Translations under genes and position numbers: made by a program
Shown here: one piece after another, positions 1,792 through 54,714 of the stretch
Numbering within the stretch: position 1 is the stretch's first letter
Layout: each line of letters begins with the position of its first letter
DNA from: a virus
Taxonomy: Duplodnaviria > Caudoviricetes
IMG/VR virus record: IMGVR_UViG_3300032092_000001
Strand: one strand, 5' to 3'
Length of the DNA stretch: 64,000 bases
The notes under the pieces: model-generated
What the model saw: only the letters and a program-made list of their open reading frames with translations
What the model was told of the DNA's origin: nothing
Database searches by the model: none

Positions 1792-3552
1792 ATGTCAAAA
1801 AAATTTTTAATTTCTGAGGACGAAAGAAGGGATATCCTATCAATGTATGGAATCCTCAAAGAGTCCATTGACCCTACAAAAGGAGGTACTCAAGAATTTA
1901 GAGTAAATTATAAAGCAGGATGGTATGATGCAAATAATCCTTCAGCCTACCTGGATGGACAGAATAAATTAATTGATGAGATTGATAATTTTGTAAAAAC
2001 ACAATTAATCCCTTATCTACAAAAAGTACCATCTAGCGTGGTCGCCATGAAGTTTAGGTCAGGAGAATCTTTGGTCCCCAATACCGATAATGAAGGTAAA
2101 GATAAGGGTAAAGGACAACCTTTAGAACCTGGTAGATTAAGTGAGTTAAGAAAATATTATTTAGAACAATATTTGAATACTGTCGTCATTCCACAAATAC
2201 AAAATGTTGACAAACAAGCCGAAATACCCGAATTACAATATGAAAAGGTTGAACCAAAAGAACCTTGGATTGGTAAATCGTGGTGTAAAAACCCAACAGA
2301 TAAAGAAGGTAGGAGTTGTCTAAAAGCTTGGAAAGATAGTGGATATATTGACAGAGATAAATATAATTTAGACCAAGTAAGTGAGTTTTCAATTACGGTT
2401 ACCCCTAAGACACCGACCAAAAAAGTAGAAGATTGCCCATCAACAATCAGAATTAGATTTGAGATTAAAAATCATAGCTGTCAAAATGCTGAATTTTTTG
2501 TATTCGCAAATAAAACTAGATTAAATAATATGGAAGGTGGAATGACCGCAAACTTGAATACAGGTTCAGGTGGTAGAGGTATACCAGGTGTTAAAGACCA
2601 ACCAATATTCCCAAAAGAATTAATGAATCCGGGTTATGGTATTTTAAGTCGTAAATATAAATCCCCACCCAAAGGTCAAACTAAAGAACAGAATGACGCT
2701 CTTTTTAGTAAAGCAACAAGATGGGACGATTTTGAAATAACCCCATCAATTAAAGAGGAAATATTATCACAATCAATTAATGATAAAAACACCACTCCAT
2801 TTATTAACATATGGTTTGAATGTACCACCTATGATGCTCATGACGATATTGTTACAATAACGATTTATGATGGGAATAATAAAGTAGTTGGTAAACCATT
2901 TTCACCTAATGGTAAAAATGAAGGTTTATTGTGTACTTTAGACAAATGCGGTATTCCGATAAAGACAATTAATGGCTCAATTGGCCCATCAGAAGGAGAT
3001 GTTAGTTCCGCAAGACAAGAGTTAATTAATTATAAGAGTAGTTTGATGAATAGTTTAGGTTTGAGTGCCGACACAACTAACTTAGATACTAAGGGGCTGG
3101 AATTAGAGAAAGCGGGAAGTTTACTTACAAACATTAATACAGTTCTTAAAAGTTTTGACGACGCATTTAAATCAATTAAATCGGAGTTTGGAAAATACAA
3201 TAAGGAATTTAATAAACTTGATGAAACAACAAGAAAGTTTATTATGTCTCAAGGAGACTCATTTAATTTTGTTAGGAATCAGAAAATTGAATACTTTCAG
3301 AAAGTACTCAATTCTAATGGATATAAAAGTTTACTTAGAAAGGACCCTTTAGACCCAAATTCATACAAAAGAGGTTTAGTTACAAGTGATATGGGTGGAG
3401 ATTTAAAAGTAAGACTTGATAAATTTTACAATTATTTCAATAAATTCTACAAGATAGGAGATGATGAAAAAATTAGACCGATATCATTAGTAAGCCCTGA
3501 GAAATATATCAATCTTAATAATGAATTAAATAAAATACGAGAACAATCTTAA
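1792..3552 (+). CDS. Large hypothetical protein (586 aa), probable virion/head-associated
   Basis: Long ORF; TATTTAT upstream; N-terminus MSKKFLISE...ILKE. Confidence 0.85.
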   Translation: MSKKFLISEDERRDILSMYGILKESIDPTKGGTQEFRVNYKAGWYDANNPSAYLDGQNKLIDEIDNFVKTQLIPYLQKVPSSVVAMKFRSGESLVPNTDNEGKDKGKGQPLEPGRLSELRKYYLEQYLNTVVIPQIQNVDKQAEIPELQYEKVEPKEPWIGKSWCKNPTDKEGRSCLKAWKDSGYIDRDKYNLDQVSEFSITVTPKTPTKKVEDCPSTIRIRFEIKNHSCQNAEFFVFANKTRLNNMEGGMTANLNTGSGGRGIPGVKDQPIFPKELMNPGYGILSRKYKSPPKGQTKEQNDALFSKATRWDDFEITPSIKEEILSQSINDKNTTPFINIWFECTTYDAHDDIVTITIYDGNNKVVGKPFSPNGKNEGLLCTLDKCGIPIKTINGSIGPSEGDVSSARQELINYKSSLMNSLGLSADTTNLDTKGLELEKAGSLLTNINTVLKSFDDAFKSIKSEFGKYNKEFNKLDETTRKFIMSQGDSFNFVRNQKIEYFQKVLNSNGYKSLLRKDPLDPNSYKRGLVTSDMGGDLKVRLDKFYNYFNKFYKIGDDEKIRPISLVSPEKYINLNNELNKIREQS

Positions 3553-3592
3553 CTTTGATTATAGTTGTATTTTCAAATCGTTGAGTTCTTTT

Positions 3593-4105
3593 TCAATTAT
3601 TTTTATACCACTCAGGTGTTTCTCTATTTTTCCAAACCGCAAATCCTGACTTGGCTTCACGGTAGTAATTTCTATATGATTCAATAACATCATTACCTAC
3701 TTTGAACTCATCTCCCATCGCTAATGGAGGGGTTGTAAAATCAATATCATGAATGTTTGGTCTATTGGTTAAACACCACTCAATTACATCTTGAGATTTG
3801 TGACGTTTACCATATCGGTATGTATATTCTTTACACAACTCAAGTCCCAAATCACATAGGTAAAGATAGTTACTTAAACTCTCACGAGTCCAAATAGCAC
3901 AAGGATGATTCCTATGAGATAACTTGTACGGTACTTGGTCGTTTACTTGGTCGGTACTTGGTGGGTACTTGGTGGGTACTTGGTGGGTTACATGGTGGAC
4001 ACCACACAATAGTTGAGCGGTTTCCAATATCATCTTAACGACGTGTTTGTCACAGTGATACTGAGCACATTTTTTAACGTCAAAATCCAAAAAGAAAATA
4101 TTCAT
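3593..4105 (-). CDS. Pyrimidine-dimer DNA glycosylase / endonuclease V-like protein
   Basis: MNIFFLD...HCDKHVVKMILETAQLL and HRNHPCAIWTRES motifs of the Pyr_excise-type family. Confidence 0.8.
   Translation of the reverse strand: MNIFFLDFDVKKCAQYHCDKHVVKMILETAQLLCGVHHVTHQVPTKYPPSTDQVNDQVPYKLSHRNHPCAIWTRESLSNYLYLCDLGLELCKEYTYRYGKRHKSQDVIEWCLTNRPNIHDIDFTTPPLAMGDEFKVGNDVIESYRNYYREAKSGFAVWKNRETPEWYKNN
3931..3986 (+). repeat. Intragenic 11-nt tandem repeat
   Basis: GTACTTGGTGG x3 perfect (3954-3986) preceded by two imperfect units (GTACTTGGTCG, TTTACTTGGTCG). Confidence 0.9.
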
Positions 4106-4118
4106 ACCGCTAATATAT

Positions 4119-4145
4119 AAAAAAAACCGATTACTCGGCTTTTTT
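4119..4145. terminator. Short intrinsic terminator-like hairpin
   Basis: A-run CCGA-TTAC-TCGG followed by C and T-run. Confidence 0.45.
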
Positions 4146-52948: not shown

Positions 52949-52972
52949 GATATCAGTTTATAATAAATACTA

Positions 52973-53872
52973 TTAATCTTGTCTTTTATTAATATCATTA
53001 ATTATTATTTTTTTAATCATATCAACATCAACATCATATTTCATTGAGATTCTATTAGTTATGTCTTCAAATAATTTACTCTCAGTTAAATTCAAAGCAT
53101 TAATGTCTCCCTGATTACAATAAGGGAATGTTTTACATTTCTTTTTAACGGTTACGAACTTACCTCCAGGTATTTGTGGTTTTGCGGCTCCTCTCCAATC
53201 CTTTGGACTCATTGATTTTGCCCCAAATGCCGGACCTTCATATGAACCTGAAGAACCAGAACCAGTTGCCTCCTTAGCTTCAACTTTTTTTGGTTTTTCT
53301 TTTAAACTGTTTCTAAGAAATTGACTATCCGCAAATGCAATTGGTCCTGAGAAAGACCCACTTGAACCTGAACCTGTAGATTCATTTGACTCCATCTTCT
53401 TTAACTTAGTATAATACTTTGGGTCCTCAGATAAGTGGTCTAATGCTATTAATTTTGGGTCGGCGGATTTATGTTCTTTCTCCACTTTAACCCCCATTTG
53501 ATATTGTTTTTTTAACTCCTGATAAACACTTTCAATTTTATCTTTTGCAGTACAGTTTTTGGTATCTTTACAAGCATGTTTCTTAGCAATATCTCTTAAT
53601 TTCGCCATAGTTGTCCTTTCAGATTCTGTTAAACTTTCCTTTAACTTTTTCTTCTTTCCTTGACAATGAGCTCTTTGACTAAAACCTTTTGGGTTATTAC
53701 AATCAATACTCTTTTTATATTTTTCCGACCACTTTTCAGAAACTTCTGTTTTATTTACTGAGTCTTTAATTTTGTTAATTTCATTAGCACTTTCAGTACC
53801 TCCAGCACCCACAGAGTTGTATGATGAAATTAGTTTACTAATTAAGTCTTTTCCAATATCCATATTATGCAT
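52973..53872 (-). CDS. Modular hypothetical protein (299 aa) with DUF5661-like segment
   Basis: WSEKYKKSIDCNNPKGFSQRAHCQG; MGVKVEKEH...IALDHLSEDPKYYTKL; two TGSGSSGS repeats. Confidence 0.75.
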   Translation of the reverse strand: MHNMDIGKDLISKLISSYNSVGAGGTESANEINKIKDSVNKTEVSEKWSEKYKKSIDCNNPKGFSQRAHCQGKKKKLKESLTESERTTMAKLRDIAKKHACKDTKNCTAKDKIESVYQELKKQYQMGVKVEKEHKSADPKLIALDHLSEDPKYYTKLKKMESNESTGSGSSGSFSGPIAFADSQFLRNSLKEKPKKVEAKEATGSGSSGSYEGPAFGAKSMSPKDWRGAAKPQIPGGKFVTVKKKCKTFPYCNQGDINALNLTESKLFEDITNRISMKYDVDVDMIKKIIINDINKRQD

Positions 53873-54110
53873 TTTTTAAACGAGGCTCCCAATAATTTCT
53901 TTGTTGCCACATAAATTTATAAAACTCACTGAAAACTTTAGTTACAATTTCTTTAACATCCTTCTCCATCTTACCATTCTTAATTTCTTTCGCAACCATA
54001 TCTAATAACTTATCCTCAAACTGTTTTACAGTGTTGGATGACATGAATTTTCTCACCTCTTCTCTGGCGATTTTTTCAATCTCTTTGGTTTCACTTTGAT
54101 TAAATGCCAT
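53865..54110 (-). CDS. Hypothetical protein (81 aa)
   Basis: ORF track. Confidence 0.75.
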   Translation of the reverse strand: MAFNQSETKEIEKIAREEVRKFMSSNTVKQFEDKLLDMVAKEIKNGKMEKDVKEIVTKVFSEFYKFMWQQRNYWEPRLKNA

Positions 54111-54114
54111 AAAA

Positions 54115-54714
54115 TTATTCTTCAGTTGGTTTAGTTTTCTTTCTGACCGCTAAAACTTTAGCCCACTTAGATTTGAACTTTTCATAAAAAGTTTGTAACT
54201 TATTTACAGTATTTAACAAATTCTCATCTAATTTCATCATTTCCCCTGACACATATATTCCATTATTTTCACCAATAGTGAAATAAAAATCCATGTCAAA
54301 ATCAACAATTTTACCAGACCAATCCACGTTATTTTTATAAACGTTTAATTGCTCAAAATTAACCAAGTCCGATACTTCGTTAACAAACTCGTCCATTGTT
54401 TCTTGGAAAGCGATTTTATCATCAGTAGTTAATTCTATATCTTTTTTAGTATCCCCGTGTATAACTAATACCCCACCAGAAATTCTATAACCTTGTTCCA
54501 CCTCATTTTTCTTCTCAGTATCATCCTCAATGTCATCTTCAACAGATGTTGGTACATTATATCGTTTACCTATATTTGAAGGGGTTTCAATTTGTTCGTT
54601 AATTGAATATCTCTTTTTAATCTCATTTACATGTGATTTAACAACAGGATTACTTTCATTAATTAAATTCTTAATTTTCCTTAGTTGGTCCTTAATATCT
54701 TGGTTATCTTTCAT
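54115..54714 (-). CDS. Hypothetical protein (199 aa)
   Basis: ORF track; IKNLINES motif near the N-terminus. Confidence 0.75.
   Translation of the reverse strand: MKDNQDIKDQLRKIKNLINESNPVVKSHVNEIKKRYSINEQIETPSNIGKRYNVPTSVEDDIEDDTEKKNEVEQGYRISGGVLVIHGDTKKDIELTTDDKIAFQETMDEFVNEVSDLVNFEQLNVYKNNVDWSGKIVDFDMDFYFTIGENNGIYVSGEMMKLDENLLNTVNKLQTFYEKFKSKWAKVLAVRKKTKPTEE

Follow-up and report, generated by a model that had tools for sequence, protein, structure and literature searches.

What are the short, similar N-termini doing on so many unrelated late proteins of one phage? The question is raised by a 64-kb stretch of DNA from the virus record IMGVR_UViG_3300032092_000001, referred to here in full as the window. 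An initial annotation had noticed eleven proteins in it that share an N-terminal tag resembling the capsid-targeting sequence (CTS) of phage T4, and had proposed that this tag loads enzymes into the head for delivery at infection. Our follow-up partly confirmed the observation, in a looser form than first stated. The window proteins carry leaders that are enriched over chance, conserved as peptides, portable between protein bodies and confined to putative late genes. These leaders fall outside the predicted folds, and their terminal motif is the one seen at the deduced maturation site of the capsid protein. Judged from sequence comparison, these leaders are probably N-terminal propeptides of the T4 CTS kind.

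By its gene complement and relatives, the source of the window is an uncultured freshwater (lake) Bacteroidota jumbo phage of roughly 290 kb with a T4-type head. The window is AT-rich (30-42% GC) and densely coding, with the minus strand predominant. Its gene content is typical of a large Bacteroidota phage, including transfer RNA (tRNA) genes and a protein with the CHU_C sorting domain of type IX secretion; further genes encode SbcCD, a cell-wall amidase, thioredoxin, a glutaredoxin-like protein (CxxC near its N-terminus) and long proteins resembling tail fibres. Megablast of positions 10000-25000 against cultured and deposited phage records returned no match, nor did a search of IMG/VR with an exact 50-mer. 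Its gene for a predicted DHH-family phosphoesterase has about 600 relatives in IMG/VR, two of which sit on complete genomes: G001 (293,850 bp), syntenic with the window at 67-90% nucleotide identity over aligned blocks, and G002 (321,403 bp, terminal repeats present), likewise syntenic with it. The clade counts hundreds of related IMG/VR contigs. Because G001 has a gene for the ribosomal protein bS21, lying between those for the portal and the prohead protease on the strand opposite to them, we place the clade among the freshwater bS21 phages of Bacteroidota (Chen et al., 2022; PMC9723584), which it also resembles in gene content, genome size (~300 kb) and lake habitat; leaders and head cargo are not mentioned in that study. 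Genes are named below by the lower coordinate of their open reading frame (gene 12272, for example, is 12272..13339).

Leaders on unrelated late proteins

All eleven N-termini were found where the initial annotation had placed them, and conserved leaders ending in hydrophobic-x-Glu were recovered in ten; the MLLKE start of 11866-12294 fails. The pattern fitted to them, ^M.{0,5}[ILVF][ILVFT][STKN]E, was counted in window proteins of at least 80 amino acids (n = 76) and compared with shuffles that permute residues 2-20. It occurs in 8 of the 76 proteins, against 0.9 +/- 0.9 in the shuffles and 1.0 predicted from internal 20-mers. The bare T4 rule, [IL]-x-E within the first 20 residues, is not enriched among the window proteins (15 observed, 14.6 expected), and the signal therefore sits in the fuller pattern of a basic start, two hydrophobic residues, [STKN] and Glu. 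Since the pattern had been fitted post hoc on the window, we applied it unchanged to the complete relatives. It was present in 21 of 245 proteins in G001 minus the window-syntenic part (4.2 +/- 2.0 in shuffles, with a maximum of 13 in 3000) and in 25 of 301 proteins in G002 (4.8 +/- 2.2). Shuffled controls had been put forward by the initial annotation as a check, and the leaders exceed them in the window (9-fold) and in both relatives (about 5-fold each). When a position-specific scoring matrix (PSSM) was built from the G001 leaders alone, the N-termini of genes 14214, 10536 and 12272 ranked 1, 3 and 5 among all positions of all window proteins. One match to the pattern that was absent from the initial list, a thioredoxin at 27981, is attributed to chance.

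The proteins behind the leaders had been described as unrelated, and the tagged window proteins indeed show no mutual blastp similarity beyond the leader. Across the window, G001 and G002, 60 pattern-bearing proteins fall into 37 unrelated body families, and 9 of the 25 leader proteins of G002 are without a G001 homologue. Beyond the clade, the cultured Flavobacterium phage immuto (MW353175), which has a T4-type head and an S77 protease, shows a weak excess of the pattern (7 of 181 proteins against 2.1, shuffle maximum 8); its annotation contains no proteomic evidence for the leader-bearing genes. A full-text literature search for the leader motifs found no biological paper.

The association with the promoter-like box TATTTAT proposed by the initial annotation also holds. 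Eight of the eleven listed genes (eight of the ten retained) have the box within 30 nucleotides (nt) upstream of the start, and the remaining three, namely two retained genes and the rejected 11866, are internal to operons headed by it. Genes behind TAnnTTTG boxes are without the tag, as had been stated, with the pattern found in 0 of 9 such genes in the window and 1 of 38 in G001. Among TATTTAT genes in G001, outside the window-syntenic part, the pattern is enriched with an odds ratio of 7 (p = 5e-5). We infer that TATTTAT is the late promoter from its closeness to start codons and its presence before structural genes. The box stands in sense orientation 3-18 nt before the ATG in 15 of the 21 window genes that have one within 100 nt upstream, and late messages would therefore have very short 5' leaders or none, a notable feature in a clade that encodes its own bS21. 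As other late genes, such as those for tail fibres and lysin, are without it, the peptide leader is not a general late-gene signal.

Rather than the one shared tag first described, there are several related leader classes of 7-30 amino acids. The commonest core, in genes 10536, 12272 and 14214, reads M-[KSG]-x-h-h-[ST]-E-[SEN]-[QE]-h-x-x-h, where h is hydrophobic (MKYLITESQL, for example). A second class, MSKKFhhTE.E+..I..LYG, heads gene 1792 and four G001 proteins. The third form is an amphipathic helix ending in h-h-x-E|[SNQ] (genes 23740, 51650 and 54115, perhaps 31420), which looks like a truncated leader because some members of the 23740 family have the full core before that helix. Genes 13339 and 19324 have a minimal form of 7-8 residues. 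All ten retained leaders end in [ILVFM]-x-E, with LINE|S, ILNE|S, NINE|S, ILKE|S, IIKE|M and FIME|S among the ends in the window. Conservation between orthologues was seen for genes 10536, 12272, 13339, 14214, 19324, 23740, 31420, 51650 and 54115, and for gene 1792 as a class common to unrelated G001 proteins. Synonymous codons within the leaders vary freely (Thr as ACC, ACT, ACA or ACG; Ser as TCA, TCT or AGT) and Leu, Ile and Val interchange, from which it follows that selection acts on the peptide and not on the nucleotides; the same variation led us to reject a nucleotide-level motif. Sec, Tat and lipoprotein signals have, behind a basic N-region, a hydrophobic core of about 7-15 residues. 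The window leaders do not, since just two or three hydrophobic residues are followed by [ST]-E-[SE]-Q, and they are therefore not signals of these kinds.

The leader-bearing genes and their protein bodies

Gene 1792 (1792..3552, plus strand) is a late gene of 586 amino acids behind TATTTAT boxes at 1778-1788. Its leader occupies residues 1-24 (nt 1792-1863), MSKKFLISEDERRDILSMYGILKE; candidate cleavage sites follow E9 (ISE) and E24 (LKE). The same leader class heads the G001 proteins at 251476, 282340, 6577 and 10556, which resemble the gene 1792 product essentially in the leader region only (for 251476 over no more than ~70 residues; 282340 also has a weak body match at E 0.007). The body has no Pfam or Atlas assignment and matches one weak PHROG of unknown function. 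The remaining candidates lie on the minus strand. Gene 10536 (10536..11087), a late gene of 183 amino acids with TATTTAT at 11093-11099, has a leader of residues 1-16 (nt 11040-11087), MKYVITESQHRQIIKE, which is kept in orthologues as, for example, MKYLISEEQN and MKFIISEQQQ.

Three leader-bearing genes follow one another in the operon that starts at 14540. The first, gene 14214 (14214..14540; TATTTAT at 14557-14563), encodes an acidic protein of 108 amino acids with a leader at residues 1-14, MAKYVFTESQLKKI; leader and linker together cover nt 14451-14540. Alignment of 26 distinct orthologues shows conservation of the leader, a linker rich in indels and a conserved h-x-E (IKE, residue 30) directly before the conserved body, GNYMAKQQL. 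Gene 13339 (13339..14214, 291 amino acids) begins with MKKKIISE (residues 1-8, nt 14191-14214), and its orthologues retain M-K-K-h-h-x-E. An AlphaFold2 model from a 28-sequence alignment has a mean predicted local distance difference test score (pLDDT) of 78.6, with residues 1-24 below 50. Foldseek matched the model best to HinP1I (E 4.6e-4, probability 0.99), followed by MvaI, PvuII and NhoI, at low TM-scores of 0.27-0.5. The residues D99, E108 and K110 are invariant and lie on the strands 99-102 and 105-112, so that the predicted model has a restriction-endonuclease-like core with D...ExK on adjacent strands, as in a PD-(D/E)xK nuclease. Residues 13-25 of this protein, FYLYNPIPI..KQE, are invariant in the 28 family members and yet predicted by AlphaFold to be unstructured; this stretch may be a second docking or processing motif between leader and nuclease fold.

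The third gene, 12272 (12272..13339, 355 amino acids), is internal to the operon and encodes a candidate zinc hydrolase. Its leader comprises residues 1-15 (nt 13295-13339), MKIILKEQQLKNINE; in a family alignment of 26 sequences, E15 (in h-N-E|S) and G18 are invariant and E7 nearly so. The AlphaFold2 model has a pLDDT of 86, with residues 1-16 below 50. The sequence HELNH...E occupies residues 167-174, with H167, E168, H171 and E174 invariant. Comparison of the model with the PDB by Foldseek and VIA-align wide gave no zincin or other clear fold, only generic helical bundles, and the Atlas leads SprT-like and LPD23 were dropped as below useful scores. For genes 12272 and 13339 the leader thus lies outside the predicted fold, which begins with confidence just past it. 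Gene 11866 (11866..12294, 142 amino acids), whose MLLKE had been listed with these leaders, has orthologues that start MNKELNGINKF and align from query residue 9; because its listed start is missing in them, MLLKE is a false positive.

Gene 19324 (19324..20724, 466 amino acids; TATTTAT at 20730-20736) encodes the predicted DHH-family phosphoesterase. The leader is MKRIISE (residues 1-7, nt 20704-20724) with the junction E|GG, and all but a few truncated orthologues (n = 79) retain M-[KR]-x-h-h-x-E-[SG]-G. The Pfam DHH model scores 23.6 bits over residues 25-105, below its cut-off of 28.1; the motifs HQDLDG (residues 28-33) and DHH (94-96) are kept in distant homologues, and no DHHA1 domain was detected in the protein.

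In gene 23740 (23740..25014, 424 amino acids, acidic in its C-terminal half; TATTTAT at 25025-25031) the leader is MRKNIKNIIRQFIME, residues 1-15 (nt 24970-25014). Across the family the helix ends in a conserved h-h-x-E[EQS], and some members prepend a full MRKKIILTESKLRKIV...IVE leader. Gene 31420 (31420..32781, 453 amino acids; TATTTAT at 32800-32806) starts with MKFTSILTSLILE (residues 1-13, nt 32743-32781), an uncertain leader assignment; ILE|N/Q is kept in G001 and G002. Its C-terminal matches to leucine-rich repeats (LRR) are weak (LRR_14, E 6.4e-5, below cut-off). The highly charged product of gene 51650 (51650..52948, 432 amino acids; TATTTAT at 52963-52969) has the leader MKNSKELFNRILNE at residues 1-14 (nt 52907-52948), with h-h-x-E|[ST] in G001 (KILSE|S) and G002 (KIINE|T), and a leader-like KINETQLEKEI occurs inside the protein at residue 97.

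Gene 54115 (54115..54714, 199 amino acids) is the distal gene of an operon headed by TATTTAT at 56526-56532. Its leader of residues 1-20 (nt 54655-54714) ends NLINE|S, with more h-N-E sites at residues 31 and 40, and the type of site is kept in G001 (DIYSE|T) and G002 (TINE|Q). A weak Gam-like Pfam match of this protein (21.5 bits against a cut-off of 25) is a lead only. A likely lysis cassette (54704-56485, minus strand) behind a TATTTAT box directly precedes this gene; it encodes a small product bearing a lipoprotein-like signal (56210-56485), together with a membrane protein (55296-56210) and a cell-wall hydrolase of the Amidase_2 family (54704-55303).

Of the enzymes named in the initial annotation, the nuclease is supported by these comparisons and the DHH phosphoesterase by intact motifs beside a sub-threshold Pfam match, whereas the HExxH peptidase is a motif with no fold match and the LRR protein has weak Pfam matches only. 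The remaining tagged window proteins are orphans. In G001, a leader also heads an Fe/Mn superoxide dismutase (L088:16081-16788), in which the Pfam domain begins at residue 36, directly behind FLTE|M, as well as a polyphosphate kinase 2 (PPK2; L084:5806-6906) and an M23 peptidase (L085:8148-9728). Both relatives contain arrays of ~105-amino-acid paralogues that start MKYLITESQIDxVIFKYLDNQDF (G001 1186-3200 and 285715-293080; G002 201182-204208), with ten copies in one body family across the two genomes; they recall small internal proteins.

Head protease, cleavage junctions and competing explanations

The head module of the relatives is of the T4 type. A Peptidase_S77 protein (PF03420, the type of T4 gp21) scores 88 bits in both G001 and G002 with invariant His and Ser motifs, the portal is of gp20 type (phrog_213, 2e-65), and the gp23-type capsid protein matches T4 gp23 structures at E 1e-23. 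T4 gp21 cleaves after L/I-x-E and retains LIE-9 of its own sequence (PMC9026906), and in the relatives' protease GILIE is retained close to its own N-terminus. By alignment with mature T4 gp23, maturation of the capsid protein would occur at ...NQAS[HFY]LINE|[AS]; LINE is invariant among 46 distinct N-termini of this protein, and the ~8 residues after it are small and variable. The LINE|S of gene 54115 is identical to this deduced site. No gp24-like paralogue was detectable in G001 by phmmer, and a gp24 propeptide was therefore unusable as a second internal control. Complex prediction for the G001 protease with a 103-amino-acid leader-bearing protein gave a score of 0.00 in a run without controls, which is not evidence either way.

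The DHH family offers the sharpest view of a junction. An exhaustive search collected 386 cluster representatives related to the DHH protein, and the junction was located in 77 of them (at most 50% identity). It precedes the conserved SGIRNI...HxDLDG body. Leaders of 6 to ~100 amino acids and of several classes are present in 69 of the 77; Glu stands at the junction in 68 of these 69 and L/I/V at P3 in 55. In the other eight, which are leaderless, the starting Met falls right at the junction (MSGIRNI). The full hIITE.QL...LLNE form occurs in some leaders, and others, such as MIKKYQNFLNEE, resemble the T4 CTS, MKTYQEFIAE, and occur only on distant homologues from other sources. That differing leaders, or none, meet one body at a fixed Glu is as would be expected of a removable propeptide. 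The analogy with T4 drawn by the initial annotation is apt and is strengthened by these comparisons, namely by the S77/gp21 protease, the matching capsid site, the portable leaders outside folds and the fixed DHH junction; its interpretation as a whole appears partly supported.

We favour the reading that the leaders are propeptides, whose working would follow the T4 scheme. The proteins would be made late in infection from TATTTAT promoters, each with a short basic start, two or three hydrophobic residues and [ST]-E, often continued as an amphipathic helix ending in a second hydrophobic-x-Glu. This leader would dock the protein onto the scaffolding core during prohead assembly, the gp21-type (S77) prohead protease would cleave after Glu, and the mature protein would be kept inside the head and enter the next host alongside the DNA. 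Core binding, cleavage, head retention and ejection are steps that we infer from sequence. A bolder extension treats the leaders as modular address labels, in which interchangeable classes bring into the capsid of each phage, for co-injection, proteins of at least 20 unrelated families; a nuclease, a DHH phosphoesterase, superoxide dismutase, PPK2 and a cell-wall peptidase would be among the cargo. This is possible, and on balance we are doubtful of it. The leader classes might then set copy number, position or release order.

Cleavage by the head protease need not mean that the bodies are effectors for injection. They could instead help in assembly or associate with the scaffold and then be degraded and expelled, or be enzymes held inactive or local until the head matures, and the evidence from the cleavage sites is the same for this account as for the favoured one. 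The products of genes 51650 and 23740 are highly charged, of low complexity and scaffold-like, with several internal h-x-E sites, and most T4 core proteins are cut up and leave the head (PMC9026906). Folded enzymes with a single N-terminal site (the DHH protein and the nuclease; in G001 the superoxide dismutase, PPK2 and M23 peptidase) are, however, nearer to T4 Alt and the internal proteins than to scaffold, and we consider this account unlikely, if deserving of some weight. We likewise think it unlikely that the leader stays on the protein, uncut by the head protease, and serves some other machinery as an address or recognition tag, be it the phage's own ClpB/ClpC-like double-AAA+ unfoldase, the tail or baseplate, a chaperone or a membrane site. 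The core hhTESQLxxh does exceed what a protease site needs, G001 encodes a ClpB/ClpC-like double-AAA+ ATPase (L085:12130-14175, minus strand; AAA_2 at 229 bits), and the leader is predicted to be unstructured alone, as docking peptides often are. Such a tag leaves unexplained why unrelated leaders end in hydrophobic-x-Glu at a fixed junction and why the same motif stands at the capsid-protein maturation site; the two or three hydrophobic residues followed by T-E-S-Q do not make a Sec, Tat or lipoprotein signal.

The nearness of TATTTAT to the ATG in those 15 of 21 window genes, together with the bS21 gene that the clade encodes next to its head genes (PMC9723584), could suggest that the pattern is a by-product of translation-start constraints on near-leaderless late messages, maybe read by ribosomes with the phage bS21. 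We regard this as very improbable, because the operon-internal genes 12272 and 13339 carry leaders and most late genes (tail fibres, lysin, capsid protein) do not; moreover, leaders run over 15-30 residues that are conserved as peptide while synonymous sites vary freely. Recognition by a modifying enzyme, as in radical-SAM-dependent ribosomally synthesized and post-translationally modified peptides, is scarcely credible, since neither G001 nor G002 has a PF04055 match and the controls were positive in 14 of 14 genomes. Equally remote is chance or composition, that is, K/I/E-rich N-termini in an AT-rich genome: the bare [IL]-x-E is at expectation and two matches (11866 and 27981) are fortuitous, but the 5- to 9-fold excess over shuffles, the conservation in orthologues and the transfer of the PSSM lead us to reject it for the core set.

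Several points weigh against the propeptide reading that we favour. The conserved core hhTESQLxxh is longer than a cleavage site requires, and the families of 13339 and 19324 have a leader of just 7-8 residues. The junction Glu of the DHH family could partly reflect conservation of the domain's first residue, though leaderless forms are without Glu. The N-terminus of gene 31420 may be part of its fold, as conservation continues into NSRFKLLYD. The protease and the capsid protein were read in relatives (70-90% nucleotide identity in the aligned syntenic blocks), not in the source genome. We also know of no precedent for a superoxide dismutase or a nuclease as natural cargo of a T4-type head.

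Set beside known systems, the leaders are closest to T4, with a short portable N-terminal leader on unrelated late proteins that ends in hydrophobic-x-Glu and a clade that has a T4-type head, a gp21-family protease and a gp23-type capsid protein with a propeptide. The 10-residue T4 CTS suffices to load proteins into the head (PMC9026906; PMC8442874). Unlike it, the window consensus is M-K-x-h-h-[ST]-E-[SE]-Q-h-x-x-h, often with a second site 8-20 residues on, and the match to MKTYQEFIAE is limited to the basic start and the terminal h-x-E, too little to count as similarity. As CTS-like sequences occur only on distant DHH homologues, the window leaders may by analogy be CTS-like in their working and yet belong to a different leader family. 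The scale also differs, with ~ten leaders in the 64-kb window and 21-27 pattern matches per complete relative (~5 expected) against a handful in T4, and the candidate bodies here include enzymes (DHH and PD-(D/E)xK nuclease; superoxide dismutase, PPK2 and M23 in a relative).

T-even phages have polymorphic internal-protein (ip) loci, with variable bodies behind a conserved CTS. As in these loci, to whose polymorphism PMC9026906 alludes in its section 2.6, the leader is kept and the body exchanged, both in the gene 1792 class on its four G001 proteins and in the G002 leader proteins that G001 lacks. In contrast to them, the leader genes are spread over many loci and sizes and not gathered in one small hypervariable locus. 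Giant phages of the phiKZ type also have a diverged gp21 homologue that cuts head proteins after Glu (phiKZ gp175, SPN3US gp245) and many ejected internal proteins (PMC10052503; PMC5694885). The propeptides of SPN3US are mostly long (111-254 amino acids) and protein-specific, with two short ones (20 and 24 amino acids), and no shared portable leader is described for them; the head module here, unlike that of the phiKZ type, is canonically T4-type.

Neighbouring features and significance

The window's most conserved non-coding block contains a GOLLD RNA (Rfam RF02032, 306 bits, full-length model match) at 17378-17790 on the minus strand, probably extending to ~18479; the block is 90% identical in nucleotides to G001 223756-224857. 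A protein of 531 amino acids (7048-8643, minus strand) begins with a signal-like segment, contains a PKD-like domain and ends in a CHU_C domain (56 bits), from which it appears that the phage uses the Bacteroidota-specific type IX secretion system of its host. ARAGORN predicted tRNA-Cys, tRNA-Leu(TAG) and tRNA-Ser(TGA) at 6243-9039, and a fourth tRNA at 4377-4451 (minus strand; Rfam, 53.5 bits) was missed by that program. Two sets of tandem paralogues on the plus strand, at 38347-40767 and 46169-47964, lie near giant tail-fibre-like genes (1014 and 1483 amino acids). One set consists of three proteins of 231-250 amino acids with 33-39% identity and the other of two of ~296 amino acids with 45% identity; no homologue of either set was found in G001. 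The stretch at 44-48 kb has an unusually high GC content of 0.42.

The concept of a capsid-targeting leader is known from T4; what is new here is the leader family, together with its scale and the enzymes among its bodies. Should the leaders act in the T4 manner, enzymes would enter the host together with the phage DNA. As a DNA nuclease is among the candidate cargo, along with a DHH phosphoesterase that may break down signalling nucleotides, both the takeover of the host and anti-defence could then precede phage gene expression. Were the modular-label reading true, the natural repertoire of capsid cargo in these phages would exceed any known for a T4-type head. The fixed DHH junction yields precise predicted cleavage sites. 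The leader provides a simple rule by which virion cargo could be predicted from the sequences of uncultured T4-like phages and, if it acts as proposed, would offer a tag for packaging foreign proteins and for their delivery by Bacteroidota phages.

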